Notes: generated by a model from the sequence alone, not told the origin. A stretch of DNA of 64,000 nt from a virus (IMGVR_UViG_3300031949_000030:686-64685); one strand, 5' to 3'. Shown: positions 28,537 through 63,333, counted from the first letter of the stretch. Program-made: numbers and translations.

Positions 28537-29892
28537 TTAAGCCTTGTGCACAGTAATAGCATAGTTATATTTCACCTGTGCAAACTCCCTCATGAAGTTG
28601 AAGTAGTTAATCCAGGATCCATTAGCTCCCGCACTCGCAATGGCTTTAGCCTTCAGTATTGAGAGTTCTGCTACATAGAGCCCGTGACTATCTTTATGCA
28701 GCACCCTAATAGTATCCTCCACATTAGTACCCTCACAGGTATTACACCTGATTCGGCACTCGTACGTCTTAAAGATCTTAGTTATCCCGAGTCTGTAGGG
28801 AGTGTGACTTCCTACTCTTACATCCAGGACTTCAAATTCATCAGAGGTATTAAACTTCACTCTCTGCTTAGCTCCATCATCAAGGATAGGTTTATCAGTT
28901 ATGAGCCAGTCTCCCTTAACTAACTCAGGCGTGTCTTTACCAAAGCGTATCTCCCGGATGATAGAATTCATAGAGCCTACCGTCTTATTACGCCAGGCAA
29001 GTACCTTTGCATAATTAGGATCTCTCTCAAACTGCCAGCAGTCAAAGTAGTCCTTGAGTAGTCCTCTGAGCCGGTCTCTCTCTGACTGATGTTTACTGTC
29101 AAGCCAGAATACACCGTTACCCTTAGAGTCAACCTCTATAGGTAAAAGCTTGGTTACAGGTTGTTCTGCACCCAGGTAAGTACGAATGGTAGTAGACAAT
29201 CTCACTATGGGATTATCCTGCTCCTGTCTCATTATCTGTGTGAGCTTCTCACGTACAAAGTAATATCCATCCTGGGATACCCCCGTGTCCTTCTTAAGAG
29301 GTATACAGTCCATCCTGTTCACAGGAGGTATCTGGCACCGGTCTCCCAGGAAGATGATATGTATACTGTCAGCATACTTGATCAGTTCTTTAAATAAGGA
29401 GTCATCCAGCATACTAACCTCATCCACGATAAGGACCCTGAAGTTATTGATCACACATCTATCAGCTTTCTTCTGCACGAAGAGTTGTTCACCCTTATCT
29501 GTGATTTCCTCGGTGAGTCCCAGGAGCTTATGTATAGTCATGAAAGCTACGCTATTCATGGACTCATCGAGCCTGCTGGCCCTATACAGAACATTCACTG
29601 CCTTATTGGTAGGAGCGGTCATAGCTATCTGCCAGCGTTTGTGAGTCCGGGTAATAAAGTTTACCAGCTTACTTATGAGAAAGGTTTTTCCCGTGCCTGC
29701 GTATCCCTCTATGACAATACTGGTATTTTTTACGGCATATCTCTGCTCTTGGGGAGAGATATACTTCTTTAGACGACTATAGATGGCAGCTTGCTCCTGA
29801 TTCATCCCATTAGATATGAGTAGCTCACTCTCCCTGATCATCTTCAGCATAGGATCTATAGATCTCTTCTTCATTACCACTGTATTTTGCAT
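28537..29892 (-). CDS. SF1B helicase, Dda/RecD/Pif1-like; C-terminus possibly truncated
   Basis: Walker A 'GYAGTGKTFLI'. Motif Ia 'MTAPTNKAV'. Walker B 'LIVDEVSMLD'. The ORF stops right after 'ITVHKA', where motif VI 'TVHKxQG' is expected. Confidence 0.6.
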   Translation of the reverse strand: MQNTVVMKKRSIDPMLKMIRESELLISNGMNQEQAAIYSRLKKYISPQEQRYAVKNTSIVIEGYAGTGKTFLISKLVNFITRTHKRWQIAMTAPTNKAVNVLYRASRLDESMNSVAFMTIHKLLGLTEEITDKGEQLFVQKKADRCVINNFRVLIVDEVSMLDDSLFKELIKYADSIHIIFLGDRCQIPPVNRMDCIPLKKDTGVSQDGYYFVREKLTQIMRQEQDNPIVRLSTTIRTYLGAEQPVTKLLPIEVDSKGNGVFWLDSKHQSERDRLRGLLKDYFDCWQFERDPNYAKVLAWRNKTVGSMNSIIREIRFGKDTPELVKGDWLITDKPILDDGAKQRVKFNTSDEFEVLDVRVGSHTPYRLGITKIFKTYECRIRCNTCEGTNVEDTIRVLHKDSHGLYVAELSILKAKAIASAGANGSWINYFNFMREFAQVKYNYAITVHKA

Positions 29893-31285: not shown

Positions 31286-31771
31286 TTACATTAACTTTTC
31301 ATATATACTCGTGAAGGTCTTACCTACAAAGTCTGAAGTAGGCCTATCTTTAAAGGCCACCAGGCCGTTGAAGTAGTGGCCGTCGCCGTGCGAGATCCGA
31401 AAGACCAACCCCCGACCAACAGCGAACTCAAAGTAGGGATACCACTTGTACTGATCTTTATTTTTCCAGTCAACTTTATACTCTCTGTTAACTAGTTTAG
31501 CTATCTGCTCTAACTGTGTCCGGGCTAGTAATCTAACTTTGAGATATACTGGTATAGATCGGAAGTGCTTGAGAGTCAGCTCCTTTTCCCCTAACTCCTC
31601 ACATATATCTTTATAGTCTCTAATTCTGTGCTCCAGTGGCACTTCTAATAATAGCTTACTGGCTTTACCGGGGGGAATATTCAGAGTCTTAGATCTGATT
31701 ATACTAACAGCTAGGTAAACGTTCTCCTTATCAGGAGACTTAATCATCTTTTCAAGTTGGAGATAGTTCAT
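31286..31771 (-). CDS. WYPYF-domain family protein (161 aa), paralog A
   Basis: C-terminal 'KWYPYFEFAVGRGLVFRISHGDGHYFNGLVAFKDRPTSDFVGKTFTSIYEKL' is a paralog of the 60033..60455 product. The N-terminal 'KMIKSPDKENVYLAVSII' matches the small 'SPD-motif' family. Confidence 0.55.
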   Translation of the reverse strand: MNYLQLEKMIKSPDKENVYLAVSIIRSKTLNIPPGKASKLLLEVPLEHRIRDYKDICEELGEKELTLKHFRSIPVYLKVRLLARTQLEQIAKLVNREYKVDWKNKDQYKWYPYFEFAVGRGLVFRISHGDGHYFNGLVAFKDRPTSDFVGKTFTSIYEKLM

Positions 31772-32953: not shown

Positions 32954-33030
32954 GCTCCCCCTGAAGGACTCGAACCTCCGTCTCCTGGCCATTGGCTGCC
33001 AAGCACTCTCACCACTGAGCTAAGAGGAAG
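32954..33030 (-). tRNA. tRNA with atypical (8-10 nt) anticodon loop; identity unresolved
   Basis: Minus-strand sequence CTTCCTC-TT-AGCTCAGTGGTGAGAGT-G-CTTGG-CAGCCAATGG-CCAGG-AGAC-GGAGG-TTCGAGT-CCTTC-AGGGGGAG. The acceptor stem pairs. The D-arm reads AGCTCAGTGGTGAGAGT and the T-arm GGAGG/TTCGAGT/CCTTC. The anticodon stem CTTGG/CCAGG encloses an oversized loop, or a 6-bp stem encloses the 8-nt loop AGCCAATG. No CCA is encoded. Confidence 0.6.
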
Positions 33031-33702: not shown

Positions 33703-34294
33703 CGCTCCATATCTTGTAGCGGTTCTTTATGTGCCTGTTATATTCAGTGACTCTCCCGACATTATCTGAGAGCCCGTCATACTGGAGAGCTACCATGGGA
33801 TAGCATACATAACCATGCTGGTTACGCAGCTTCTTCCCACTGATCCACTTGTCCAGGTTAATAGTCGGGGGAGCACTAAGAATATCTCTATAGAAGAGGT
33901 CTCTTACTATGTAACAGTGGAGCCCGCTAAACTCGAGAATCCTCCCGAGATTGTTACTAACACCTGTTAGCTCCATATCATAGACCCCGGCGAGATAGAT
34001 CATCCAGTCTTTCGGGAGATACTTTCTGTGTTCCAGGAATCTCTGCATGGACAGGGGATGTGTAAACATGACGTCGTCCTCCATGATGAGAACTTCCTCA
34101 TACCCATGGTACATGGCCCAATTAACAGCACTCTTATGTGCGCTACAGATATTCTCTACGGGTTTCTTACTCAACTTCACAGCTGGGATAACTGCCACAT
34201 CCATGTGATTAATACCCTGCCCTGCCATCTCCTGGACAAAGAGAGTCTGCCGGTCCTCTCTCTTCTGATCATGTATGACTGCCATATGAATCAT
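33692..34294 (-). CDS. Glycosyltransferase family 25-like protein (weak)
   Basis: The N-terminal 'MAVIHDQKREDRQ...' and 'ICSAHKSAV' pattern resembles GT25 (LPS glycosyltransferase) 'IINL.R..R...' and 'GCxLSH' blocks. The similarity is low. Confidence 0.3.
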   Translation of the reverse strand: MIHMAVIHDQKREDRQTLFVQEMAGQGINHMDVAVIPAVKLSKKPVENICSAHKSAVNWAMYHGYEEVLIMEDDVMFTHPLSMQRFLEHRKYLPKDWMIYLAGVYDMELTGVSNNLGRILEFSGLHCYIVRDLFYRDILSAPPTINLDKWISGKKLRNQHGYVCYPMVALQYDGLSDNVGRVTEYNRHIKNRYKIWSGEP

Positions 34295-34551
34295 ATTCTA
34301 CCTATTTTAGTTAAGAGGTGTAGTAGAAGGTCAGTATCCCTGGTTGCAAGGAACTTGTCGCATCCCATAGTTCTATAAGGAGCATTGTTACTTATCATAG
34401 TACCTACTATGAAGTGAGGAGCATGTATCCTGCTGCACAATATATCCTGATTTCCTATGTTTAGTCCTCGGAAACCTATACAGGCCAGACACTCTTTGTA
34501 AGAGTTGTAATGAACTAGTAGAAGGAGTTCTTTGTGCTTATCTTGGGTCAT
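34291..34551 (-). CDS. Cys4 small-protein family, member 1 (86 aa)
   Basis: 'YKECLACIGFRG', then further Cys/His, then a C-terminal amphipathic helix 'DTDLLLHLLTKI'. Confidence 0.5.
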   Translation of the reverse strand: MTQDKHKELLLLVHYNSYKECLACIGFRGLNIGNQDILCSRIHAPHFIVGTMISNNAPYRTMGCDKFLATRDTDLLLHLLTKIGRI

Positions 34552-34795
34552 AACTCATGTGTTCTAGTAGTTCGAGTATCAGCTCTGTGTCCCGGTGCAT
34601 TTTGAAACTAGGGCATCCTCCTGACCAACTTGTCCTTCTGCCAGATGCAGGGAAACCTGACAGAGCGGCGTTATTACAGAGAACCATCCCTTCTTTGATG
34701 CCCTTACAACATGTGCAAGACTCACACTCACGTAAGCTGTTATGATTTATGAGTTCCAGGAAGTCCTCATGACATAGCACTACTTTATTCTTCAT
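34538..34795 (-). CDS. Cys4 small-protein family, member 2 (85 aa)
   Basis: 'LRECESCTCCKG', then distal Cys, then 'DTELILELLEHM'. Confidence 0.5.
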   Translation of the reverse strand: MKNKVVLCHEDFLELINHNSLRECESCTCCKGIKEGMVLCNNAALSGFPASGRRTSWSGGCPSFKMHRDTELILELLEHMSYDPR

Positions 34796-35072
34796 TCATT
34801 CTCTTGATTAAGTCTTGTACCAGAGATATATCTGCTGTTATCTCAAAGCCGACACCACATCCTACTGAATTCTTATCATGACTCTTCTCAGGATAGAAAC
34901 CGCAGACGCCTATCACTACACAGTGTATCTCTCTCTCTTTCACACCTGTGAAATTCCTGCAACATTTACACTCGAGGAAACCACTGTACTTAACCATTCT
35001 TAGTACATCAAAATGTCTTCTATCAAGTCTACCCCGGAGATGGGATCCTGCATTACTCTTCTTACTTTCCAT
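34785..35072 (-). CDS. Cys4 small-protein family, member 3 (95 aa)
   Basis: 'FLECKCCRNFTG', 'HC', 'GC', then 'DISLVQDLIKRM'. Confidence 0.5.
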   Translation of the reverse strand: MESKKSNAGSHLRGRLDRRHFDVLRMVKYSGFLECKCCRNFTGVKEREIHCVVIGVCGFYPEKSHDKNSVGCGVGFEITADISLVQDLIKRMNEE

Positions 35073-35361
35073 ATCTACCTCCTTCCTTCATCTCTAAGAG
35101 TATAGATAATATACCCCACATCTCTTGGGTCATCCGGAATTGTAAGCATCCTTTGGGAGTAGATGAACCAGAATGGTCCTCCTTAGATCGTGTGCCTACA
35201 TATCCTGCTATCTGGCACCACATTGCATCCTTCTCTACTATACCTGAGAAGTTACGGCAGGATCGGCACTCCTTGAAGCTGTTGTACTTAATTCTCTTAA
35301 GTAACTCATTATGACTCTTCTCGAGTTTAGCCCGTAATGAGATCTTCTCACCAAAATTCAT
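35062..35361 (-). CDS. Cys4 small-protein family, member 4 (99 aa)
   Basis: 'FKECRSCRNFSG', 'WC', 'GC', then 'EMWGILSILLEM'. Confidence 0.5.
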   Translation of the reverse strand: MNFGEKISLRAKLEKSHNELLKRIKYNSFKECRSCRNFSGIVEKDAMWCQIAGYVGTRSKEDHSGSSTPKGCLQFRMTQEMWGILSILLEMKEGGRYGK

Positions 35362-35627
35362 GATATGTGTTTTTTAGATAGAGGAAATTGTTGAAGCAGC
35401 ATGTAGTAGAGCAGAGAGTCGATCATAAGGAAATCGGGGTTACCTACTGATAGACTACAGCTACCAGAGCCTAGTATAAGCTCTACGCTAAGGTTGTAGC
35501 CAGGAGCACAGGATATTGTTCCCAAAACTGCTCCGTGGTAATGTATACACGCCTCACACTCCTTTATGCCATCCAGAGTGCCCTGAGTCTTAGTCTGTAT
35601 CATAGCTCTACCATGTTTGTTCTTCAA
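35358..35627 (-). CDS. Cys4 small-protein family, member 5 (89 aa)
   Basis: 'IKECEACIHYHG', 'SC', 'SC', then 'DFLMIDSLLYYM'. Confidence 0.5.
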   Translation of the reverse strand: MKNKHGRAMIQTKTQGTLDGIKECEACIHYHGAVLGTISCAPGYNLSVELILGSGSCSLSVGNPDFLMIDSLLYYMLLQQFPLSKKHIS

Positions 35628-43130: not shown

Positions 43131-44057
43131 TTAAGTCTTCTCAGTATCAAGTATAGTCTGCACAGCTTTGAGTCCTTCTACACCCCCGATACCCTTACAG
43201 ATAGCATGATAGGAGTCGTAGATAGTAAAACCATTACACACCAGAGTACATATAGTCTTCAGGTGCCTCATAGATAAGTTGAAACTGATCTTGAACTCAT
43301 TATGCTCCTTGTTGATCTTGTAATAGACCTTGACTATCTTTGTAGCTTTCTCAGATTTCAGAGCCGGGTGTGTGACACTCAGGCTCTGCGCAAGGTTAAT
43401 CTCATCCAAAGGATCTACAGTTATCATCATGAACCGGTCCACTAAGGCTCTATCGAGCTTATGTGTGCCAGTATACTGAGAGCCTATGTTAGCTGTGGCA
43501 AAGAACACGCACTTAGAGTGAACCTTTACAGGCTCAGTATCATCAAAAGCATACTCCATAGAGAGCTCCCTGCGGAAGTCAAGACATGGAAAGAGCAGAT
43601 TATTACTCATCGCTGCACTCCTGCTTATTTCATCACAGAGAATGATCCCGGGATTCTGTATAAGTTCCGAGAACCTGCTTCTTCTGAATTCTGAGTAGGA
43701 CTTTCCGTCTTTGACTGTGATAACGTGGGTTCCTACTAATCCCATAACCGGATCGGTCATAGTACCCATGTCAAGTATTGTCAGAGGTACATTCATGACC
43801 TTGGCCATATTTGATACCATCTCTGTCTTTCCCTGCCCTGTAGGGCCTACAAGCAGGGTATTAATACCCTTCCGTATATTATGCTCAAGGATCTTAAATG
43901 TCCCTGTAGCTAGTTTGAAGTATCCGTTAAGTGTAGTCATAGTCTCTGTTATAACTATATCCTCTGATATCTTACCGGATCTTTTCCTGGTCTTACTCAC
44001 TGGTGACTCCGCTGTCATAACGGCACCGTCCAGTGGAAATTCTGCTGTCTCTGTCAT
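43131..44057 (-). CDS. MoxR/CobS-like AAA+ ATPase (pair 2)
   Basis: Walker A 'LLVGPTGQGKTEMV'. Walker B 'GIILCDEISRS'. 'FFATANIGSQYTG' is sensor-like. Confidence 0.6.
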   Translation of the reverse strand: MTETAEFPLDGAVMTAESPVSKTRKRSGKISEDIVITETMTTLNGYFKLATGTFKILEHNIRKGINTLLVGPTGQGKTEMVSNMAKVMNVPLTILDMGTMTDPVMGLVGTHVITVKDGKSYSEFRRSRFSELIQNPGIILCDEISRSAAMSNNLLFPCLDFRRELSMEYAFDDTEPVKVHSKCVFFATANIGSQYTGTHKLDRALVDRFMMITVDPLDEINLAQSLSVTHPALKSEKATKIVKVYYKINKEHNEFKISFNLSMRHLKTICTLVCNGFTIYDSYHAICKGIGGVEGLKAVQTILDTEKT

Positions 44058-52977: not shown

Positions 52978-53165
52978 GTGAGTTAGAAGGGTCGGATCAT
53001 GGTTTGATAGTATTCGGTATCTCTACCTATAACTAGTATCACTAATCCTCCCAGGGGTATATATCCCATACTGATGAGATTGTTGACCTCTCTCTCAATC
53101 TCATCTATATAGGCACTTTTCACTACTTTATAGTCTCTATACATAGGCTGTGTAGTTAGAAGGGT
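52978..53165. promoter_or_regulatory. 360-bp non-coding region with direct repeat AGTTAGAAGGGT x2 (candidate promoter/operator)
   Basis: 'gtgagttagaagggt' at 52978-52992 and 'gtgtagttagaagggt' at 53150-53165. Sits upstream of the membrane-protein gene. Confidence 0.2.
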
Positions 53166-53311
53166 AAGGCTACTGCCTGCAGGAAGTAACTAAGATCATC
53201 CTGGTAAACTCCTCCTATAGGTATATAACCTCTGGTAAGATACTTATTTACCATATCCTCTAGAATATTTAGAGTAGATGCTTTCAGTATACTGTACTCT
53301 CTGTACATACC

Positions 53312-53754: not shown

Positions 53755-54195
53755 TTAAGGTTTCTTCTTTTCGGAGGTGGTTCCCCGCGAGGTTTTAGGT
53801 TGTGGAACGTGTCTTGCGGATCTCATGTTACGTAGGAGTCCGGGACTATGTATAATATTGTGAGCGGGGCATCCGCAGGATAGTCTTGGAATGCTCTTAC
53901 GAGTGTAGGGAACAATTTCCGCCCTCTCTATATACATATCTTTCTCATGATATAGTGCGTTATCCTTATATATCTGGTGAGTCAGGGTCTTACCTACAAC
54001 CCATCTCGAAAGCCTCAGAGCATCTTTGTAGGAGTAGTAATCCAGCAATTCGCTCCCAGGGACATCTATATGTATATAAGTTTCAACTGTCCAGCTCTTA
54101 ACTAGGAGTTCCTTAGGAAATCTTCCTCTTAAGGGACTATCGTGGTCCATATAGGTATCGGTAGCTACTCTAACTATGTACTTAGCATCATTCAT
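53755..54195 (-). CDS. Hypothetical protein (146 aa)
   Basis: ORF. Confidence 0.4.
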   Translation of the reverse strand: MNDAKYIVRVATDTYMDHDSPLRGRFPKELLVKSWTVETYIHIDVPGSELLDYYSYKDALRLSRWVVGKTLTHQIYKDNALYHEKDMYIERAEIVPYTRKSIPRLSCGCPAHNIIHSPGLLRNMRSARHVPQPKTSRGTTSEKKKP

Positions 54196-54327
54196 GTTTA
54201 AATGTTCTTGGGTTAATCTAGTCTAGCTGTAAGAGATGAAGGTAGTCTTATGTCTATGAAGGCATGAAGACTATGAACTTCCTTTTCCAGAACCACTCTT
54301 ACGTTATAGAATATGTTGCGTCTCTCC

Positions 54328-54558
54328 TTACTTACCTCTCCTCTTCGTAGAGAGGTCCATTGCACTATTTATTAGAAGAGTCCTCAGGCTCTCTCTCAGA
54401 GCCTTCGGACTGGTGTTAGGAATGTTTCTCCCACCGGCTCTCAAAAGTTGGCAGATAGCATAGTCTCTCTTAAAGTTATACCTATCCAGTATATTCTCTA
54501 TCAGTGTTGCTATGTCCTCTATAGTGAGACCTCTCATTAATCTACTCTTCTTAGTCAT
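54328..54558 (-). CDS. 'YNF' family protein, copy 1 (76 aa)
   Basis: 'IENILDRYNFKRDYAICQLL' matches 'ILDNYNFVRASAILQLI' (58688) and 'LDKFNFVEAAAVMRLL' (61365). Confidence 0.45.
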   Translation of the reverse strand: MTKKSRLMRGLTIEDIATLIENILDRYNFKRDYAICQLLRAGGRNIPNTSPKALRESLRTLLINSAMDLSTKRRGK

Positions 54559-54872
54559 GGTTGTTGTATTTTAACAAGATCTTTAGGGACAAGTTCGATG
54601 TTCTCCACAAGGTACATCTCGGGGGAGTTGTGTACCTTATATCTACGTCCTACAAAAGATCTCCGGATGTCACAGATATCCTTATGACAAGGATTTACTA
54701 CCCGGAGTCCCATTTTATAGACAGTTAGATCACTGGTATTTATTACCGTCATGTATATCTCGGGGTTATTCAAGAGCTTCTCTGCTGTAATCCGATCCTG
54801 AGATAGATGCTTCCCTCGAAAGAGGTACTTATCTATCCCTACTCTCATGTAGTACATCTGTGGTTCGGTCAT
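54555..54872 (-). CDS. 'YxRVG...ESIEIV' family protein (105 aa)
   Basis: 'YYMRVGIDKYLF'...'YLVENIELV'. Confidence 0.5.
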   Translation of the reverse strand: MTEPQMYYMRVGIDKYLFRGKHLSQDRITAEKLLNNPEIYMTVINTSDLTVYKMGLRVVNPCHKDICDIRRSFVGRRYKVHNSPEMYLVENIELVPKDLVKIQQP

Positions 54873-55111
54873 CTTGCAAGGTTATTAGGCACCAGTTCTA
54901 TCGAGTTAATCATGATTCTGACCTTGGGGTTCGTGGTAGATACTATCTTACCTAACCATCTCTTTCTTGCATAGTCAGGATCCCAGACGAACATAACTAC
55001 AAAGTGCTCTATAGAGTTCTTACTATCACACTCCTCTTTGTATTTATCCCCGGTGTAACCCAAGTATAAGTCAGGACCTACACGGATATACCAGTAAAGA
55101 GGAGATTTCAT
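54869..55111 (-). CDS. 'YxRVG...ESIEIV' family protein (80 aa)
   Basis: 'YWYIRVGPDLYL'...'LGKIV...IMINSIELV'. Confidence 0.5.
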   Translation of the reverse strand: MKSPLYWYIRVGPDLYLGYTGDKYKEECDSKNSIEHFVVMFVWDPDYARKRWLGKIVSTTNPKVRIMINSIELVPNNLAR

Positions 55112-55158
55112 GATAGTGGATATGGTTCTAGTTCAAGGGAGTCTATAATCATGTATTC

Positions 55159-55353
55159 TCATAGCTCAGGGCACTTGTATCTATTACCCAGATAATCTCT
55201 CTTTACCTGACCAGGATCCCATCTGGTGACGGACAAGAAAGCAATATGTTCGCCTCCCTTCCCGTTCCAGGAACTACTAATAATGATCTCTCCCTTTCTA
55301 GAGTGGGCCAGGTACATATGGAGACCTACTCTTACATAGTACCTACTCATCAT
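55159..55353 (-). CDS. 'YxRVG' family fragment (64 aa, lacks C-terminal motif)
   Basis: 'RYYVRVGLHMYLAHS', with no ESIEIV C-terminus. Confidence 0.35.
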   Translation of the reverse strand: MMSRYYVRVGLHMYLAHSRKGEIIISSSWNGKGGEHIAFLSVTRWDPGQVKRDYLGNRYKCPEL

Positions 55354-55793
55354 GCTGCTATGAGTTTCTGATCCTTCCGGATTATAAGACCTGAGGGTAG
55401 TATAGAGCCGATGTCCCAGTGTCTCTCGAGAAATCCCTCAGCGTGCTCCTCATTAAGCAGAAAAGGCATCCTGTGATGTACTTCTCTTATAAGAGGCCAG
55501 GAGTCCATAGTAAGTACCGCGAATTCATTGTTGGAATTAAGAAGAACTCCTGCCAGGAGTTTCTTCCCATCTTTGTGAGTAAACTCGACTCCTCTTTCGA
55601 AGAAGCTGTCCAAGGTCACGATCCCGGTCTTAAAGTTACGGTAGATCTCATTAATACGCTCTACCCGGGCATTATACTGCTCTCCGTTACGGAATCCCCA
55701 GACAGAGCTGGAGGTTCCTCTTGTACCTTGGTTGACACGCATGATGTCACCGGGCTTCAGAATTTTCATCCCAGATCTTGTACGTCCACACAT
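55350..55793 (-). CDS. SRAP/YedK-like (abasic-site processing) domain protein, compact
   Basis: N-terminal 'MCGR', 'YNARVERI' (INARVE), 'LDSFFERG' (DGWFEW) and 'VLTMDSWPLIREVHHRMPFLL' (DIHDRRPLVL) are in YedK order. Confidence 0.55.
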   Translation of the reverse strand: MCGRTRSGMKILKPGDIMRVNQGTRGTSSSVWGFRNGEQYNARVERINEIYRNFKTGIVTLDSFFERGVEFTHKDGKKLLAGVLLNSNNEFAVLTMDSWPLIREVHHRMPFLLNEEHAEGFLERHWDIGSILPSGLIIRKDQKLIAA

Positions 55794-55811
55794 AACCGGA
55801 ATATTAGTTGT

Positions 55812-56000
55812 CTAGAATGGCAGGTCTTTCTCAGGCTCCTGCTCTGGTCCCTTGGAATCTTTATCTCCCGGGTCAAGTACGGTGCCTATAATAGGTCCAT
55901 ACATTATCAGCATCGACGGAGGTATACCGGATGCTTCTACCTCCTCCATGAACCTGTCATGTTCTTCGGCGAGGTGCTTGTCTCTGTGAGAATTACTCAT
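55812..56000 (-). CDS. Hypothetical small protein (62 aa)
   Basis: ORF. Confidence 0.3.
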   Translation of the reverse strand: MSNSHRDKHLAEEHDRFMEEVEASGIPPSMLIMYGPIIGTVLDPGDKDSKGPEQEPEKDLPF

Positions 56001-56203
56001 AAGATATTAGTCAGGTAGTGCTTGGTTACATCCTCTTCAGATTCTATCCTGCTGAGGACACTCTGTGCTTCCTTGTCATCCTTAACCCGGAAGCTGAGGG
56101 TATTCAGGATCCTCTCCCTGGTTATCAGAGAGCCGGTGTTCTTGTCCCTGATCATCTCTCTGGTGAAAGGTGCATTCCTGATGTGGATAGTGAGTCTTTT
56201 CAT
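55997..56203 (-). CDS. Hypothetical small protein (68 aa)
   Basis: ORF. Confidence 0.3.
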   Translation of the reverse strand: MKRLTIHIRNAPFTREMIRDKNTGSLITRERILNTLSFRVKDDKEAQSVLSRIESEEDVTKHYLTNIL

Positions 56204-56472
56204 GTTGTTATTGGATAAGCTGTAGTTTTTGTAGGTCCGGGGGAGGTCTCAGGCTTAGGTATGAACATACGTATATGTCTATCCACCTTTGAGGTTTCGT
56301 CATAGATAGTAGTGTAAGAGAGAGTTCTCCCGATGCACTGACTCTCTTCCTGACTTTTAAAAGAGAGAGCTTTGCAGGAGTTATGGGTAAAGTAATACCT
56401 TCCGGTATCGTCTTGTGCAAGGAAGCGTGACTCTCTGGGAGGTACTCTTATAGATATTCTATATATGCTCAT
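56200..56472 (-). CDS. Hypothetical small protein (90 aa)
   Basis: ORF. Confidence 0.3.
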   Translation of the reverse strand: MSIYRISIRVPPRESRFLAQDDTGRYYFTHNSCKALSFKSQEESQCIGRTLSYTTIYDETSKVDRHIRMFIPKPETSPGPTKTTAYPITT

Positions 56473-56490
56473 GGCAGTTGGTTATTAAAG

Positions 56491-56868
56491 TTAGTGAGTG
56501 CTATCAAGTATATTTGCAGATTCTACAAGTATAAGCACTGTTTTATCTCTGTTGAAGTCTGTGACAACTATTCTCTTTCCTATGAGTGCTTTACAAAACT
56601 TAATGGCATACTCTCTTTTAACACTTAGAGGTATATAGGCTAAAGCTGTTGATCCAAATAATCCTGAGAGGTTTCCCTGAGAATCTTTAACTGGGAACTC
56701 TACAGAGACACAATGAGGGCCTTCCCCAACTATCCTAACTATTTTCTCTTCTGGTATATTCTTCAAGGTTCTGATAGATGAAATAGCCATAGAGCATATA
56801 AAGATAGGAGTGTTCCATCCGGGAGGAGGATTCACAATAATACGGTAGTGCATAGATTTCTTATTCAT
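56491..56868 (-). CDS. 'LIGKRIVV' subfamily protein A (125 aa)
   Basis: 'PIFICSMAISSI...LSGLFGST...FCKALIGKRIVVTD...LILVESANIL' is paralogous to the next gene. Its C-terminus is related to the ESIEIV family. Confidence 0.5.
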   Translation of the reverse strand: MNKKSMHYRIIVNPPPGWNTPIFICSMAISSIRTLKNIPEEKIVRIVGEGPHCVSVEFPVKDSQGNLSGLFGSTALAYIPLSVKREYAIKFCKALIGKRIVVTDFNRDKTVLILVESANILDSTH

Positions 56869-56873
56869 GGTGC

Positions 56874-57272
56874 TTAAAGGGGATCTAGCTTACTTCTTAT
56901 CAAGTTTACTGACTCTATAAGGAGTACGAGTGAGGAGGACCCAGCATCTATATTCGATTTATCAATAACAACTATTCTCTTACCTATAAGCTGTCTACAA
57001 AAGTTTACACAGCAACCCGAGGGTAGATCTATAGGGCTATATCCCCTCCTCCTAGTGGATCCGAATAGACCTGGTAGTGTGTCATTTATATCAGGTATAT
57101 GAGTATGAGGTAGTACTACCGTGGCATGAGCAGAGGGAGTCAGATTCCACTTTACTCTTATTATTTTATTAGGAGGTAGCCTCTTGTAATAATCGTGTAT
57201 AGAGGCTACGGACATTGAGCATAGAAACACAGGAGCTCTCATTGATGCAGGTGTGTTTAGTATAATATTCAT
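56874..57272 (-). CDS. 'LIGKRIVV' subfamily protein B (132 aa)
   Basis: 'PVFLCSMSVASI...LPGLFGST...FCRQLIGKRIVVID...LVLLIESVNLI'. Confidence 0.5.
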   Translation of the reverse strand: MNIILNTPASMRAPVFLCSMSVASIHDYYKRLPPNKIIRVKWNLTPSAHATVVLPHTHIPDINDTLPGLFGSTRRRGYSPIDLPSGCCVNFCRQLIGKRIVVIDKSNIDAGSSSLVLLIESVNLIRSKLDPL

Positions 57273-57616
57273 GTTGATATATATTTAGCTTGTGTCTTCC
57301 AGTACTCCAGTCTTCTCCTGAGTATGGGGGCACAGTGCGTGACTCTCCCATTCTTCACTATGAGCCCTGCACAAAGGTAGGGTGTGGTTACCTGGTATAG
57401 TCCGTCTTTCATAGGTAGTTCGTGTATTAGTTATCCCCGAAGGGACTGAGTCAGCAGGGTTAACTTCTTGTGGCTTCTGCAGCCCGGGTAACACTTGAAG
57501 AGCTCAAAGTCTCAAGAGCAGAGGTGTTATCAAACAGCGGTCGGTGAGTTCTGTACCTTACCCTGACGAATCCGGGTTATGGTACGCTCTCAGTCTCCGG
57601 TTAACCTACTTCTGTG

Positions 57617-58381
57617 CTATACTGCTAACTCAATGGGTAGAAACTTCTGTAGATTAATAAGGATGTGCGCGTCCTTATTGCTATAAGGTATAGCAGATAA
57701 TCCTTCCTTGAGATATCTTACTGCTCTTTCCCGGACAAGCTCCATGAGTGTGTCCCGGTGAGAGTCTTTAAGTTTCTTATATAACTCATACTGCTGGGCA
57801 AACATAATAAGCTGCGCATGCATACTAAGGGTAAGGTGTGTAATATGAGTCATGTCCTTAAGTTTAGGGTCGTGATGATCTCCTGCATGACCACAGTCAA
57901 ATCCGAAGACTATGTAACCTGTAGGGTCCTTAGCGAGCTCGTGATTGATATACTTTATACGGACCATGTAGCTGTCCGGGGGACTATCGTTTAATCTCTC
58001 CTTGTATTGCTTCTGGACTTCTTCCTGGGTATTGCATCCAATCTGTACGCAGTAGGTTATGCCCCCGTGAATATCGAGCTCGTGCGATCCTTCAAAGTCA
58101 CCGTTTCCCCACCACTCCTTAGGTACATCTGACTTAGGTATAACACAGTATCCACAGGCAAACTCCATTATCGGGTGATGTTGTGTTCCCGGAGGTTTAT
58201 TTACTACACAGAGGTTAGCATAATGATATATCTTAAGCCCCTTATCTGAGTACTTAGGGCTGAGGTAAAATGGATAGAACCTGTAGGGCTGCTTCATTCT
58301 CTCGAGGAGCCCCTTGATGAGATGGTTATCAATAGTCCAGGTGAACCGTATAGGTCTTCTATCTGTCTTAGGTCTTTTCAT
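57617..58381 (-). CDS. Hypothetical protein (254 aa), His/Cys-rich
   Basis: ORF. 'HELDIHGGITY', 'GFDCGHAGDHHDP' and 'THITHLTL' hint at a metal-dependent or 2H-like enzyme. This is unresolved. Confidence 0.4.
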   Translation of the reverse strand: MKRPKTDRRPIRFTWTIDNHLIKGLLERMKQPYRFYPFYLSPKYSDKGLKIYHYANLCVVNKPPGTQHHPIMEFACGYCVIPKSDVPKEWWGNGDFEGSHELDIHGGITYCVQIGCNTQEEVQKQYKERLNDSPPDSYMVRIKYINHELAKDPTGYIVFGFDCGHAGDHHDPKLKDMTHITHLTLSMHAQLIMFAQQYELYKKLKDSHRDTLMELVRERAVRYLKEGLSAIPYSNKDAHILINLQKFLPIELAV

Positions 58382-58663
58382 TCAAAGATAGTTGGTTAGC
58401 ACCAGTTCTATAGAGTCAGGTCTTATATAAGGACGGTACCTCTGCACATTATCAAATGTACTTATCTTCTTCCCCAGGAGGTAATTCCTTAGAAGAAGAG
58501 CCTGATCCCTTGGCATAAGATCGGGATTTATTAGTGAAGTAGCAAACCATACCAGGTTTTCTGGAGGGACACCTGCTATAAATCTGGCTAATCCACTATG
58601 AGTATCTGCGTGGACATATACGTATTGAGCTACCCTAAGAGCGAAAAGTGGGGTGTGGTTCAT
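58382..58663 (-). CDS. Divergent 'YxRVG...ESIEIV'-like protein (93 aa)
   Basis: 'FALRVAQYVYV'...'LLGKKIS...RPDSIELVL'. Confidence 0.4.
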   Translation of the reverse strand: MNHTPLFALRVAQYVYVHADTHSGLARFIAGVPPENLVWFATSLINPDLMPRDQALLLRNYLLGKKISTFDNVQRYRPYIRPDSIELVLTNYL

Positions 58664-58687
58664 GGTAGGTTAGTCATAGTTATTTGC

Positions 58688-59116
58688 TTAAGGGTTGTAT
58701 TCTTTCATGAGATAGTCTTCCTGCTCACCTGAGAGATACTCGCATCTCTCTAGATTGTTTCTTTCTTTAGTAGTCTCATTTCCGTCCAGGAGTTCGTCCA
58801 GGAGTACGTCTCTGGTATAATGAGAGATTTGTCCCGGGTTATTTGTCCGTATCTCGTCAATGTTAAGTGACAGATAGATATGGTCTACAACTCTATAAAC
58901 AGTAAACAGATAGGCACATTGGATGTCTTTCTCTCCTGGGTCTGAGTCAAGGTATGCTACCATGGCATCCGCAGCATGCCTCCTGAGAACTCTTGGGGTG
59001 AACCCCGTAGCTTTACCGGGATATATCAGCTGCAAGATGGCACTGGCTCGTACAAAGTTATAATTGTCCAGTATATGTCTTACTCTCTTAATCATCTTCT
59101 CTTCTTTCCTGGTCAT
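58688..59116 (-). CDS. 'YNF' family protein, copy 2 (142 aa)
   Basis: 'IKRVRHILDNYNFVRASAILQLIYP'. Confidence 0.45.
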   Translation of the reverse strand: MTRKEEKMIKRVRHILDNYNFVRASAILQLIYPGKATGFTPRVLRRHAADAMVAYLDSDPGEKDIQCAYLFTVYRVVDHIYLSLNIDEIRTNNPGQISHYTRDVLLDELLDGNETTKERNNLERCEYLSGEQEDYLMKEYNP

Positions 59117-59478
59117 GGTATACGTGTTATTCCGGGAGTTACTTCTCCCTTATCACTAATAGTGCGGGTGTCTGTCTTGTGGATAATGTAGATTCTTAAG
59201 TATACCCACCACTGGCCTTCTTCATACCTCTTAGCCACACTTATACCAAAAGGCTCTATTATTACGTCCTCCCGACCTCCCTTAGTGAGCATGCCTGTGA
59301 GTATCCCTCTCAACCATGATTCCATGTAGTATCTCGCATGTGGCCAGTAGTCCTTTGAATATAACTTACCTTGCTGATCACACAGCCGGGATAGCCGGTC
59401 AGTATCTATAGTAGCCATTATCCTCCGAACTGTTTCAAAGGGGTCGGCTTCATAATAAGGGATAGGAGCAGGGTCCAT
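59113..59478 (-). CDS. Hypothetical protein (121 aa)
   Basis: ORF. Confidence 0.4.
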   Translation of the reverse strand: MDPAPIPYYEADPFETVRRIMATIDTDRLSRLCDQQGKLYSKDYWPHARYYMESWLRGILTGMLTKGGREDVIIEPFGISVAKRYEEGQWWVYLRIYIIHKTDTRTISDKGEVTPGITRIP

Positions 59479-59549
59479 AGGTAGTTAAAGTAATCTTTAG
59501 TAGAAATAGTTCTCCGGTACTACTTCTACTGATGAGATATATGACTCAA

Positions 59550-59831
59550 TCAAGGTATGGGTGGTGTGGTGAGACTAGTTACTTTTTTACGGAGGATCCC
59601 GAGAACTTCCTCTCTTGTCAGAGAGCAACAGAAGAACCCGTGAGGGTTGTCATCAGCCTTCACTGTGAATCTGTCTTTCATAAACTCTTCCTGAACGGTG
59701 CAGGTCACCCATCTCTCCTCTTCCTCCAGGGGACGCTTGACAACTGCAAAAGAATAGTGATTCCAGTACGTCTGTGTGAGAGGGTACCTTATAGTTATTC
59801 TCTTACCTATGAGATTTTCTGGGTTATTCAT
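59550..59831 (-). CDS. Hypothetical protein (93 aa), possibly related to 'LIGKRIVV' subfamily
   Basis: N-terminal 'NLIGKRITIRYPL'. Confidence 0.35.
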   Translation of the reverse strand: MNNPENLIGKRITIRYPLTQTYWNHYSFAVVKRPLEEEERWVTCTVQEEFMKDRFTVKADDNPHGFFCCSLTREEVLGILRKKVTSLTTPPIP

Positions 59832-59869
59832 ACTAGTACTTCTTATATTCTCTGCTTTAGTTTTTAGTT

Positions 59870-59955
59870 GTGACTAGGTCGGATTCGAACCGACACTTCC
59901 CTTCTCCAGGATAATACTTACACAGATGATTTTCACCAGGCTATACAAACCCTGC
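59870..59955 (-). other. tRNA-like 3' fragment (T-arm plus acceptor-like tail) without a recognisable complete cloverleaf
   Basis: Minus-strand GTCGG-TTCGAAT-CCGAC-CTAGTCA-C is a canonical T-stem-loop. The upstream candidate 5' acceptor 'TGTATAG' pairs only 5 of 7 positions. No D-arm was found. Confidence 0.3.
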
Positions 59956-60032
59956 TACTTCTCATCTTGTATATGTGCTTTCTTTCTCGGAGAACGGCGT
60001 GCTACCGTTACACTACTTTGCCAGTTATATAC

Positions 60033-60455
60033 TTAGAACTTCTCCTGAGATAACTCTTCATAGAGATGTGTAAAGGTCTTCCCCATATAGTCTGATGCCT
60101 CTTGTGTTTTTAAGTAGGCCACCAGGCCGTAGAAGTAGTGGTCGCCGTAGTCCGAGCTCCGAAAGACTAACCTCCGACCAACAGCTAACTGAAAGTAGGG
60201 ATACCACTTTACTCCCTCTTTTCTCCAGTCTGGAAAGGTTCTGTCTTCAATAAGAATGTTTATAGCACGGGCTATCGTCTTAATCTTATTAGAGACAGTA
60301 TCATCCGGATTAGGGATTATGCTGAGCACTTTACAGGCCTTATCATAGGAATCAACCTGGTGGAACTTAGTTATCTTACCTCTTTGCTCGTCAATTTGTC
60401 TGAGCTGGTCAGGTGTGAGAGTTATGAGAACTCCGTCTACTGTTATCTTAGTCAT
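60033..60455 (-). CDS. WYPYF-domain family protein (140 aa), paralog B
   Basis: 'KWYPYFQLAVGRRLVFRSSDYGDHYFYGLVAYLKTQEASDYMGKTFTHLYEEL' is a nucleotide- and protein-level paralog of 31286..31771. Confidence 0.55.
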   Translation of the reverse strand: MTKITVDGVLITLTPDQLRQIDEQRGKITKFHQVDSYDKACKVLSIIPNPDDTVSNKIKTIARAINILIEDRTFPDWRKEGVKWYPYFQLAVGRRLVFRSSDYGDHYFYGLVAYLKTQEASDYMGKTFTHLYEELSQEKF

Positions 60456-60479
60456 GTTACTAGTTTTTAGGATTAGAAT

Positions 60480-60608
60480 TTACTTGCTTACAGACACTCT
60501 CTTCTTACCAGTTATTTTTCTGATAGCAGTAAGATGAGCTGCAAGATATATGTTGTCAGGATCTTTAGAGAAGATCATAAGTCTGATTGTCTGCAGATCA
60601 TCTCTCAT
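60480..60608 (-). CDS. Unlisted 42-aa 'SPD-motif' ORF upstream of paralog B
   Basis: Manual translation gives 'MRDDLQTIRLMIFSKDPDNIYLAAHLTAIRKITGKKRVSVSK'. It matches 'KMIKSPDKENVYLAVSIIRSK' at the N-terminus of paralog A and the 49.5-50.1 kb pair. Confidence 0.35.
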   Translation of the reverse strand: MRDDLQTIRLMIFSKDPDNIYLAAHLTAIRKITGKKRVSVSK

Positions 60609-61046
60609 GTGAGTATATATTAGTTATTAGCAGACCCCTCTGCACTCAGTTGTAATAATAGAAGAGTTAGCATAGTTGCGACCGATCATGTATTTCTACC
60701 CGATTGGTGTGGTGACTTATTTACCACTTTATTAACTACTTCTATTTACTACAACTGCTCACCCTTGGGAGCTGATTAACCTCGGCAAATCCGATACTAT
60801 ATCGGGATAATCAGGTAGTTTCACATCTTACTCCACATATTCGTCCCTAAGGATAATGTTATTTTGTGGTACACCCCCTTAAAGGGCTGACGGAGGATAT
60901 CCGTTTCTTAAGAAGTCTTTATATCTACGTAAGTTATGGTGCATTATTGCAGGCCAGGACTGGTGCTATCTGCTTGGTGGCTCATCGTGCCACAGAGGAT
61001 TCTCACCCTATAAGTACTTTCTTTATGAGGTTAGTTTTAGGTGAAG

Positions 61047-61331
61047 TTACTGTACTTCATGACTCCCTATCCGGACTATCTCTATACTGTCTATGAGAAG
61101 CTTTCTTCTTCCTCCTGTATTCTTTAGGGGAGGAAATAGAAGTTTCCCTATATAACTTCTTGCTTTCAACATAGCTCCTCTCTTTCCCCTTACCAGGAGG
61201 ACATTAGTGGTGGCTGTGTCATAGGTGTGGTGAATATAGACCTCCTCGGGAGTAGGGTTTGTAGTAGGATGGGTCCGGTATCTACTTATACATAGATTTT
61301 CTCCGACCCGGAGCTTGTATAGTCCTCGCAT
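61047..61331 (-). CDS. 'YxRVG...ESIEIV' family protein (94 aa)
   Basis: 'LYKLRVGENLCI'...'YIGKLL...KLLIDSIEIV'. Confidence 0.5.
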   Translation of the reverse strand: MRGLYKLRVGENLCISRYRTHPTTNPTPEEVYIHHTYDTATTNVLLVRGKRGAMLKARSYIGKLLFPPLKNTGGRRKLLIDSIEIVRIGSHEVQ

Positions 61332-61364
61332 AAAAGTTATGATAGTTGAGTGATGTGTTGATTC

Positions 61365-61778
61365 TTACTCAAGTCCCGGGACGGGCTTCTTTTCTATCCA
61401 GTAGGTATATTCTTCGTAGGAAAGTCCGTGAAGAATACTACCGTCCCTTTGGTAAAGAAGCATCTGGTGAGACAGGTATATGGCTACCCGATTGACTCCC
61501 TCTGCTGTAATTATTACAGGCAGGAAGGATAGCTCAACTCTCTTATCAGAGTAGCTACGCATCTGAAAGCATATCTCTGTGGGAGATATAGAGAGGTCCT
61601 CTCTACTAAATTTAAGGGCACCGGCGGCCCATATTCTTAGATTCAGAGGGGTTAATATATTACGATATTCCGGATGCAGGAGTCTCATTACAGCAGCTGC
61701 CTCGACAAAGTTGAACTTATCAAGGTGCTCACGGATTCTCCGGAGATAACTGTGTAGCTGAGCTATAGTGTGGGTCAT
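61365..61778 (-). CDS. 'YNF' family protein, copy 3 (137 aa)
   Basis: 'LRRIREHLDKFNFVEAAAVMRLLHP'. Confidence 0.45.
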   Translation of the reverse strand: MTHTIAQLHSYLRRIREHLDKFNFVEAAAVMRLLHPEYRNILTPLNLRIWAAGALKFSREDLSISPTEICFQMRSYSDKRVELSFLPVIITAEGVNRVAIYLSHQMLLYQRDGSILHGLSYEEYTYWIEKKPVPGLE

Positions 61779-62056
61779 ACTGGTATGATTTCTCCGTTTT
61801 CTATGAGTAATTTTATCTCCCGGTTATAGTATCTGGTAAGTACCTTACCTTTACAGAGGTTGAGCACTTTTATAGCCTCAGGTCTACTGAACTTTGCTGC
61901 TTGTGTTGAAGGAGAATTATTAGTTTGCCAGAGATTGTAACCCAGGGATCCTCCTCTTACGATTCTTACGGAGGAGAGAAGTGAGGAGTGTACTATATAC
62001 AGATTTTCTCCGACACGGATGTAATATTTCTTCTCATCTCTTTCGGCTATAGTCAT
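61775..62056 (-). CDS. 'YxRVG...ESIEIV' family protein (93 aa)
   Basis: 'KYYIRVGENLYIV'...'CKGKVL...KLLIENGEII'. Confidence 0.5.
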   Translation of the reverse strand: MTIAERDEKKYYIRVGENLYIVHSSLLSSVRIVRGGSLGYNLWQTNNSPSTQAAKFSRPEAIKVLNLCKGKVLTRYYNREIKLLIENGEIIPV

Positions 62057-62061
62057 GATAG

Positions 62062-62289
62062 TTAGTTAGGAGAGGCTCTGATTAGTTCTATTGACTCTAT
62101 AAGAAGTGTCCTTCTTGCTAAAGGGCACATAAAGACCTTGCCTTTATACCTCTTCACTGCCTCTATAGCTTCCTTATAGGTAACGGGAGGCCAAGCATTG
62201 GTATCAACCCGATATCCTCCTTCGGCAGGTCTAAGGTATAGATTCTCACCTATCCTAAGATAGTAACCATGGTAAATATGTGAAGTCAT
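62062..62289 (-). CDS. 'YxRVG...ESIEIV' family protein (75 aa)
   Basis: 'YYLRIGENLYLR'...'YKGKVF...LLIESIELI'. Confidence 0.5.
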   Translation of the reverse strand: MTSHIYHGYYLRIGENLYLRPAEGGYRVDTNAWPPVTYKEAIEAVKRYKGKVFMCPLARRTLLIESIELIRASPN

Positions 62290-62531
62290 AGTTTGAAAGC
62301 AAAGGATACTATCTCTATAGACTCTACGAGGAACTTCTTTGGATCGCCATTATGCATAGGCAGGAGCTTTCCTTTATATGTGAGTGCTCTCTTTTTGGTG
62401 AGCTCATAGGATCTGGAGTCCCAGTCTATAATAACTGTATCCGGGTAGTAAACCACACATGTTTCAGGAAATCTCTTCAGGTATAAACGAGGGCCTACCC
62501 GGAGGTTGTAATAGGTTATAGTAGTAGCCAT
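62286..62531 (-). CDS. 'YxRVG...ESIEIV' family protein (81 aa)
   Basis: 'YYNLRVGPRLYLK'...'YKGKLL...FLVESIEIV'. Confidence 0.5.
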   Translation of the reverse strand: MATTITYYNLRVGPRLYLKRFPETCVVYYPDTVIIDWDSRSYELTKKRALTYKGKLLPMHNGDPKKFLVESIEIVSFAFKL

Positions 62532-62541
62532 GGGATTTAGG

Positions 62542-62832
62542 TTATATACTCTTGCTATCTATAAGCTCAGCATTCTCAATGAAGTACTTCTTACTACTAT
62601 GGAAGCCCGGGACTTTCCTTGCTCTGATCTCTCTGATTATATTCAGGGCTACATCACGACTATAGGTTATTATAGTGCCGCTCGTTCTTAGCGAGGCTAT
62701 CTGCCATATCTCCAGATTTACTACGTAGAGAAGACCCTGGTGAGACATCGACGTGTAGATATACTGATCAGGACCGGTTCTTATGAGATAGTGCATGTGG
62801 TGGTATTTTAAAGTGGACCCCGGGATACTCAT
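62542..62832 (-). CDS. 'YxRVG...ESIEIV' family protein (96 aa)
   Basis: 'HYLIRTGPDQYIY'...'KYFIENAELI'. Confidence 0.5.
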   Translation of the reverse strand: MSIPGSTLKYHHMHYLIRTGPDQYIYTSMSHQGLLYVVNLEIWQIASLRTSGTIITYSRDVALNIIREIRARKVPGFHSSKKYFIENAELIDSKSI

Positions 62833-63071
62833 CAGAGCTCTATAAACTCGGCTGTCTCTATGAGATATTGTTTATTCTCCCGCAAATCCCCGACTCTCTT
62901 TCCTTTAATCTTAGCTAACATCTTCCAGGCTTCTATCCTGGTGTAGCCTATATGAGAAGAGGCCCGATAGGATAACCTGGGGGTTACACTGCTAAGGATT
63001 GTATTATGAAAGTCTCTGTATATAAAGTGTTTAGGTCCTACCCGAAGAGCATAATAGCAAGGAGAGGTCAT
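62832..63071 (-). CDS. 'YxRVG...ESIEIV' family protein (79 aa)
   Basis: 'YYALRVGPKHFIY'...'IKGKRV...YLIETAEFI'. Confidence 0.5.
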   Translation of the reverse strand: MTSPCYYALRVGPKHFIYRDFHNTILSSVTPRLSYRASSHIGYTRIEAWKMLAKIKGKRVGDLRENKQYLIETAEFIEL

Positions 63072-63099
63072 GAGAAGTTAGTGAGTTAGGTATGGGATA

Positions 63100-63333
63100 T
63101 TAAGTGTGAGCAATCCCCTCGATCAGAGATATATCCACGATCTCAGCGGAGTCTATGAAGTGCCCCTTGTTTGAGAAAAGGCTTATGAGGTTCTTTCCCT
63201 TGACCTGGTGAATTATCCGGAGAGCTTCCTGGAAGTTGTAAGTCGCGTGTCCTGGATAAGCTGTAACAATCAGGGGTAACTCTGGTGCTGAAGAAATGTA
63301 CAAGTCGGGACCTACACGTATGACATAGGGCAT
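63100..63333 (-). CDS. 'YxRVG...ESIEIV' family protein (77 aa)
   Basis: 'YVIRVGPDLYIS'...'VKGKNL...HFIDSAEIV'. Confidence 0.5.
   Translation of the reverse strand: MPYVIRVGPDLYISSAPELPLIVTAYPGHATYNFQEALRIIHQVKGKNLISLFSNKGHFIDSAEIVDISLIEGIAHT

Follow-up and report, generated by a model that had tools for sequence, protein, structure and literature searches.

A 64,000-nucleotide stretch of viral DNA (IMGVR_UViG_3300031949_000030:686-64685; this whole stretch is referred to here as the window) holds near its end an array of 17 small genes. These comprise 12 copies of a protein family that we call Y, three copies of a second family, YNF, and one pair of paralogs, C1 and C2. ENA contig ERZ27256953:k141_1998683, 125,705 bp from an uncultured phage, has the window as its last 64 kb and ends 36 nt past it; its final ~10 kb consist of tightly packed, co-oriented small genes among which the Y family dominates. 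These protein families are new, while viral multigene families in terminal accessory regions are an already known kind of phenomenon. Judging from sequence, we tentatively suggest, with a probability of about 0.4, that the Y genes may encode early host-interaction proteins for counter-defence or takeover, which would bind different targets through a variable segment.

Organization of the array

All plausible genes between 53.7 and 63.4 kb lie on the minus strand. The array spans 53755-63333 (9.6 kb), of which the Y and YNF families together with the C1/C2 pair fill ~5.1 kb. Spacing within the gene runs is operon-like (-4 to +33 nt, with ATGA overlaps), and the gaps between runs measure 132, 204, 201 and 438 nt. 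The genes are listed below by coordinate; E values for Y members are from leave-one-out profile searches and 'after' refers to the direction of transcription.

53755-54195, minus strand: Y member 12, 146 amino acids with a basic C-terminal tail, directly after YNF copy 1; E = 2.4e-9
54328-54558, minus strand: YNF copy 1, 76 amino acids, N-terminal helical domain only, isoelectric point (pI) 10.7; phmmer against the 58688 copy, E ~1e-3
54555-54872, minus strand: Y member, 105 amino acids; E = 1.9e-10
54869-55111, minus strand: Y member, 80 amino acids; E = 1.8e-8
55108-55353, minus strand: Y member with an in-frame TGA at 55159-55161, annotated as 64 amino acids (55159-55353), 81 with read-through; E = 4.8e-6
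56491-56868, minus strand: C1, paralog of C2, 125 amino acids, with a C-terminal 'LIGKRIVV…LILVESANIL' block resembling the Y C-terminus
56874-57272, minus strand: C2, paralog of C1, 132 amino acids
58382-58663, minus strand: most divergent Y member, 93 amino acids, directly after YNF copy 2; E = 9.6e-4, 15.4 bits
58688-59116, minus strand: YNF copy 2, 142 amino acids; phmmer against the 61365 copy, E = 1.6e-6
61047-61331, minus strand: Y member, 94 amino acids, directly after YNF copy 3 and the last gene before the 438-bp non-coding gap; E = 9.4e-8
61365-61778, minus strand: YNF copy 3, 137 amino acids
61775-62056, minus strand: Y member, 93 amino acids; E = 1.1e-10
62062-62289, minus strand: Y member, 75 amino acids; E = 5.3e-11
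62286-62531, minus strand: Y member, 81 amino acids; E = 1.2e-9
62542-62832, minus strand: Y member, 96 amino acids; E = 3e-10
62832-63071, minus strand: Y member, copy used for the structure model, 79 amino acids; E = 2.5e-11
63100-63333, minus strand: Y member, first in the direction of transcription, 77 amino acids, acidic, pI 6.0; E = 5.6e-11

The copy at 63100-63333 is absent from the ENA gene calls. Scored by the codon usage of long genes in this phage, frame 0 is positive and both shifted frames are negative for 17 of the 17 genes. Stop-codon recoding was considered as an explanation for the small open reading frames (ORFs) and rejected: many neighbours lie in other frames with ATGA overlaps, and general recoding is unlikely because TGA ends 12 of the 27 genes checked.

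Membership and divergence of the Y family

A Y profile was built from 11 genes that the earlier note on this DNA had grouped under the motif 'YxRVG…ESIEIV', all of which are indeed minus-strand ORFs in the positions it gave, and was run on the full six-frame set of 993 stop-to-stop ORFs in the window. The profile recovers its own 11 genes and a twelfth at 53755-54195 (E = 2e-8) that was never part of it. The array, previously counted as 11 copies beginning at 54328, is thus one of 12 beginning at 53755. The next matches are the ORFs at 56491 (E = 0.0033) and 56874 (E = 0.44), with all others at E > 1. Leaving out each of the 12 members in turn, we recovered every one, ten of them at E values from 2.5e-11 to 9.4e-8, the 55159 copy at 4.8e-6 and the gene at 58382-58663 at 9.6e-4. 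The 15.4 bits of this most divergent member compare with 11.1 bits for the best of 1000 shuffled sequences. The earlier grouping into two paralogous families, Y and YNF, is therefore one that profile and pairwise methods reproduce. No further degraded Y copies were found in a six-frame scan with stops masked.

One copy is interrupted. The 64-residue product annotated at 55159-55353 lacks the C-terminal motif solely through the in-frame TGA at 55159-55161; past this codon the frame of 55108-55353 runs on as EYMIIDSLELEPYPLS to an ATGA overlap with the next Y gene, and the motif itself, EYMIIDSLELEP, follows in the same frame. Read-through improves the leave-one-out E value of this copy from 0.018 to 4.8e-6. 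Because the motif continues in frame, the overlap is in place and the match is the better for read-through, we read the sequence as that of a full-length member, which is either a gene with a recent nonsense mutation (a pseudogene) or a read-through gene.

The 12 Y proteins range from 75 to 146 amino acids and share 13-42% pairwise identity. Direct DNA repeats in the region amount to just 24-49-nt stretches of 71-88% identity and, because these are coding stretches of the conserved motifs alone, there are no recent duplications. In a neighbour-joining tree and in identity matrices the nearest relatives are physical neighbours: the copies at 62542, 62832 and 63100 form one group and those at 61047, 61775 and 62062 another. 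The 53755 and 58382 copies pair in the tree on long branches, and both lie downstream of a YNF gene (copies 1 and 2). Since neighbouring copies are the most alike, this pattern indicates old, local tandem duplications, possibly including duplication of a YNF+Y unit. With 12 co-oriented copies within 9.6 kb and neighbours that group together, the Y genes have the features of a tandem-duplicated virus multigene family.

It could be argued that an array of this kind consists mostly of decaying or neutral duplicates, ORFans without current function. Such an origin would account for the in-frame stop in one copy, for the lack of detectable relatives elsewhere (see below) and for the failure of the ENA gene caller to report 63100-63333. 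Against it, 11 of the 12 copies are intact even though they share so little identity, the structural motifs have been kept while the DNA diverged, frame-specific codon usage extends to all copies and the start/stop overlaps are preserved. We consider neutral decay improbable.

Predicted structure of the Y proteins

A moderately confident AlphaFold2 model of the 62832 copy, calculated with an alignment of the paralogs, has a mean predicted local distance difference test score (pLDDT) of 77.9 and a predicted template modelling score of 0.66, with secondary-structure elements in the order β-β-β-α-β-β-β. Conservation is concentrated in the hairpin of strands 1 and 2 ('YYxRVGxxLY'), at the end of the helix with its Gly-Lys pair and in the final pair of strands ('LIESIEIV'). 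Two residues, Arg10 and Glu75, do not vary at all. Between strand 2 and the helix conservation is low, and the length of this segment differs by ~0-45 residues. In the model, these fixed ends and the variable middle fit diversification on a fixed scaffold.

The earlier note had put forward ASCH, PUA, EVE and SH3-like folds for this family. These are unsupported, because Foldseek comparison of the model with the PDB and with viral models gave nothing better than E = 0.1: neither a PUA-like pseudo-barrel (ASCH/PUA/EVE) nor an SH3-like, Tudor or KOW small β-barrel was among the structural matches, and no Pfam match points to the former. A PDB sequence search with Y gave nothing below E = 0.39. 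A likeness of the helix, 'EAxxxxKGK', to the N-terminus of DUF2829 was set aside, since no Pfam match backs it.

Of the 12 Y proteins, 11 have a pI of 9.1-10.2 and a net charge of +2 to +9, the only acidic member being that at 63100-63333. This brings us to the main rival to a role in host interaction, namely that the Y proteins are small basic nucleic-acid-binding proteins, either transcription or translation regulators or DNA/RNA-coating proteins, which control phage or host expression and whose paralogs differ in site or timing. Their charge would suit this, as would the pI of YNF copy 1, the small, β-rich architecture in which one helix precedes a conserved Gly-Lys, and the location of the genes as early-region neighbours of replication genes. 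No DNA- or RNA-binding family or fold was matched, however, OB/IF1-like and RRM matches being at noise level, and the region showed no operator-like motifs recurring in its DNA. For a phage of 126 kb, a set of twelve regulators would be large, and one of them would be acidic. On balance we regard nucleic-acid binding as rather unlikely.

The YNF family and the C1/C2 pair

The YNF copies at 58688 and 61365 are related by phmmer at E ~1e-6 and those at 54328 and 58688 at E ~1e-3; the 54328 and 61365 copies show no significant direct match and are joined via 58688 alone. An AlphaFold2 model from the three sequences has four helices within residues 3-57 (pLDDT 61-75), the remainder falling below 50. 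YNF, for which the earlier note had put forward a helix-turn-helix (HTH) as a candidate, matches no HTH family in Pfam and has no notable sequence match in the PDB.

C1 and C2 were previously described as paralogs sharing the C-terminal block of Y. That they are paralogs of one another is clear (E = 1e-18, 39% identity). Their likeness to Y is weak, as the profile E values given above attest, and is confined to ~35 C-terminal columns covering a helix, the Gly-Lys and two strands, for which hhalign gives P = 0.003-0.011; the alignment is suggestive of C-terminal kinship.

Each YNF gene was also said to be followed by a Y gene, within a repeating cassette. The first part stands, in three of three cases when the 53755 copy is included, and adding the twelfth Y gene turns the third cassette into [Y]3-YNF-Y, resembling the first. 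A gene-order permutation returns p = 0.06, and for this reason we do not take a regular cassette grammar as established. The same value bears on the idea that the array represents selfish or addictive cassettes (toxin-antitoxin systems, immunity pairs or mobile-element cargo) multiplied for their own sake, with YNF and Y as partners. The constant order of YNF and Y, and the grouping of two YNF-downstream Y genes in the tree, would be expected of such partners. The adjacency is nonetheless statistically weak and 12 Y genes are set against three YNF genes; no toxin, antitoxin, nuclease or recombinase domain was found, nor were flanking DNA repeats or target-site duplications, and all copies are old and sit in one block on one strand. 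Selfish multiplication seems to us a poor explanation.

Database searches and relatives

The families had been reported as unrecognised, and they remain so after searching: no member of the Y, YNF or C sets matches Pfam, PHROGs, NCBIfam or PADLOC, and no known structural repeat protein was matched. Even at E ≤ 10 no family is matched by more than one Y member. A word-indexed search of 5.8 billion clusters with Y, YNF and the C pair returned only the proteins themselves, from the one 125,705-bp contig. In an hmmsearch of 1.84e9 representative proteins, the Y profile found 11 query proteins and three long tandem-repeat proteins. We regard the latter as artefacts, their scores being summed over 5-8 near-identical stretches with no correspondence to the motifs. 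Significance in this library needs ~35-39 bits, compared with the 15-40 bits scored by left-out true members. The region had no megablast match among 50,697 phage records, searching IMG/VR for loci with a single protein from each of the Y and YNF families gave nothing and the exact DNA of the array has no IMG/VR match.

Two neighbours of the families do have relatives. Within the array, the 254-residue product of 57617-58381 has relatives of just 27-37% identity in IMG/VR and Joint Genome Institute (JGI) metagenomes, one of them on a 482-kb contig, and none of these relatives has Y, YNF or C neighbours. The SPFH gene adjoining the array is related to 40 IMG/VR loci at 55-67% identity, only two of which are syntenic, L010 (on a 128.6-kb contig) and L012; these have the downstream replication genes in common (23-53% identity), and in the nearest related contigs the SPFH gene is 66% identical. 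Upstream of SPFH, where the array would be expected, L012 (10 kb checked) and L010, extended by 7.4 kb as L050 (~17 kb), carry unrelated genes. In L010/L050 these are HNH endonucleases, a 466-residue protein, a duplicated 118-residue protein, a tRNA-like sequence and other, unrelated small genes. Even at E ≤ 1 in these small databases, L010, L012 and L050 gave no homolog of Y, YNF or C. Because the array is absent from this position in the nearest relatives, we regard it as accessory and lineage-specific.

Some further observations on these relatives may be recorded. In six-frame translations of L050 (IMGVR_UViG_3300010348_000547) the segment ~8300-11100, 13-16 kb upstream of SPFH, resembles a tRNA cluster, and the two copies of its duplicated gene (118-123 residues) share 73% identity. 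The 308-residue protein encoded at 43131-44057 on the minus strand of the window is 63% identical to that at 19467-20438 in L002, on the 482-kb contig IMGVR_UViG_3300028558_000016. A homolog of the 57617-58381 gene, with 37% identity, lies on this contig too, which suggests gene exchange with a very large phage.

Genomic setting

The first Y gene begins ~0.7 kb from the contig end, and the array occupies the interval 0.7-10 kb from it. Transcription runs inward from the array into a ~40-kb block on the same strand that encodes helicases, a primase, an ATPase, an HNH endonuclease and a DNA polymerase, the last being ≤34% identical to that of any cultured phage. The SPFH gene has a counterpart in Flavobacterium phage FL-1 at 47.6% identity. 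Shine-Dalgarno sequences are lacking from all array genes, which fits a host that is probably a member of the Bacteroidota. The earlier placement of the array in an early region agrees with its position: lying upstream of the replication genes and beside the contig end would fit such a region.

This position also bears on the idea that the Y proteins are virion-associated, as internal, ejected or decoration proteins present in several variants. They are small and basic like some internal proteins, and the window opens with two giant ORFs without assigned function. Yet ~40 kb of replication genes separate the Y array from any structural module, the Y genes share an operon with accessory genes such as those for an SRAP-like protein and a lipoprotein, and there is no structural match in PHROGs. 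A virion role appears very improbable. We hold it, neutral decay and selfish cassettes to be less likely than host interaction or nucleic-acid binding.

A candidate leader motif, ATAACTAATA, was discarded as not enriched (13 matches against 8.3±3 expected), and folding of the 204-nt and 438-nt gaps gave unconvincing z scores of -0.06 and -2.24. The change in GC skew across the array is small and owed mostly to a pyrimidine-rich last kilobase. The last ~70 nt of the contig are themselves a pyrimidine-rich tract (CCCTCCCCCTCCCCTTCCCCCTCTCTCC). Between 53312 and 64000, the 30 nt before every minus-strand start lack a Shine-Dalgarno sequence and are poor in G, with recurring CTAAC/AACTA and '…ACTACCT-ATG' strings.

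A possible role in host interaction

We suggest that the array would have arisen by repeated local tandem duplication, in which two YNF+Y pairs were perhaps copied together, followed by deep divergence (15-42% identity) concentrated in the central loop. The Y genes would be early, non-essential accessory genes, since the array lies at the upstream end of the leftward transcription block into the replication genes and beside the contig end. Each copy would present the same small β-scaffold to a different host target, most likely a component of host defence or of host macromolecular machinery, and the YNF proteins would act as accompanying regulators or partner subunits. The earlier note had likened the array to diversifying effector, immunity or specificity-factor arrays, and we retain the comparison as an analogy.

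A more far-reaching form of the proposal, which we consider doubtful, is that Y represents a new small-protein fold and a phage-encoded repertoire of binders. A rigid β-scaffold, held by the invariant strand-1 Arg and the invariant Glu of the final strand, would carry a hypervariable loop; the 12 copies would each neutralise a separate host defence or factor, and YNF proteins would be dedicated regulators of the cassettes. The array would then correspond, in a bacterial virus, to the multigene families that large eukaryotic DNA viruses carry at their ends.

Several points weigh against a role in host interaction. Firstly, searches of Pfam, PHROGs, NCBIfam and PADLOC showed no likeness of any member to a known anti-defence or takeover protein, and a basic pI is no less suited to binding nucleic acids than to binding proteins. 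Secondly, the structure model was built on just 11 paralogs (pLDDT 78). Thirdly, the early timing is deduced from position alone, and scans for σ70-type promoters and terminators gave results at background level. The deep divergence without recent duplicates is, moreover, unlike the fresh amplifications of laboratory arms races. Finally, given the threshold of the large protein library and the scores of true members, a lone, equally diverged Y homolog might have escaped detection elsewhere; a comparable array would probably have been seen.

Comparison with known systems

Homologs of the anti-CRISPR AcrID1 form duplicated, diverged clusters among the early genes at the termini of the Sulfolobus rudiviruses SIRV1/2/3, beside Aca8, with 26 of 35 homologs in four viruses and identity down to 7% (PMC11065993). 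The Y array is similar in that small, diverged paralogs lie close together near a genome end, and the rudivirus copies likewise stand among early genes and beside a small putative regulator. The differences are considerable. There is no relationship of sequence or fold, the viruses there are archaeal and the host here is probably one of the Bacteroidota, and the AcrID1 family has a demonstrated anti-CRISPR member, whereas for the present array a role is proposed. It also has 12 copies in one genome, and no common upstream regulatory motif was found.

The host-takeover module of Bacillus phage SPO1 is a cluster of 26 small genes (PMC6873191). Both it and the Y array are dense blocks of small early-type genes that share a strand, mostly have no known function and occupy one end of a large genome. 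The SPO1 genes, in contrast, are mostly unrelated to one another, where here one family has expanded, and we found no homology between the two.

Amplification of anti-defence genes has been described for tifA in T4 (PMC9391042) and, driven by SegB, in T6 (PMC13096335). Those cases and the Y genes have in common that a small accessory gene is multiplied in tandem, which is one way for phages to respond to host immunity; T-even amplification stands at the short-term end of the process. The T-even amplifications are recent, near-identical and unstable, whereas the Y copies are anciently diverged and without DNA-level repeats. The array therefore looks like a set of retained, diversified paralogs and not a dosage effect.

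A run of small genes together with a small helical protein, as YNF is predicted to be, also recalls the acr-aca operons of bacterial phages. In these, runs of small inhibitor genes, related or unrelated to one another, share one operon with a small helical protein, Aca, whose defining features are an HTH and the ability to repress the acr promoter. YNF matches no HTH family in Pfam, and it differs in lying inside the runs, not always at their end.

Other features of the window

Two features of the array region merit mention. A tRNA-like element at 59871-60022 on the minus strand, in the 201-nt gap between the ORFs 60033-60455 and 59550-59831, has a canonical D-arm and T-arm (GGTTCGAATCC) with ~95 nt inserted in the anticodon region. 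It scores 26.5 bits with the Rfam tRNA model (gathering score 29; E = 0.047), is not called by ARAGORN and may be an intron-containing or disrupted tRNA. The adjacent 140-residue protein (60033-60455) is 41% identical to a 161-residue protein encoded 29 kb away at 31286-31771 (E = 2.5e-19). Just downstream of the array, the adjacent minus-strand ORFs 52983-53144 and 53156-53308 (50-53 residues) are visibly alike ('MYR[DE]Y…GYIP[IL]GG') and resemble a tandem pair when judged by eye.

Elsewhere, the anticodon loop of a tRNA gene at 32954-33029 (minus strand; Rfam 45.2 bits) is 8 nt long (AGCCAAUG), and ARAGORN gives it a four-base anticodon, 'ccaa', with no amino acid assigned. A group I intron at 28266-28611 on the minus strand (RF00028, 67.8 bits) overlaps the 3' end of a Dda-like helicase ORF (28537-29892), and the ORF downstream of the intron, 27568-28125, may be the second exon of this helicase. 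The small adjacent genes 34294-34554, 34541-34795 and 35065-35373 are a trio of paralogs (E = 1e-5 to 1e-6). On the plus strand the adjacent giant ORFs 101-5938 and 5942-11482, of 1945 and 1846 amino acids, converge on the minus-strand replication block and have no PHROG match at E ≤ 0.001.

Significance

The firm result is a descriptive one, namely three orphan families, of which one has 12 copies and possibly a new fold. Should the Y proteins turn out to be ordinary regulators or inert duplicates, the locus would be another patch of phage dark matter. If they are diversified host-interaction proteins, one scaffold would be available there in as many as a dozen natural forms, each of which may have its own target. 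The array would then serve as a compact system for discovering new anti-defence or takeover functions in Bacteroidota-type phages, from which few are known, and would allow the long-term retention and diversification of paralogs to be studied in comparison with transient amplification.

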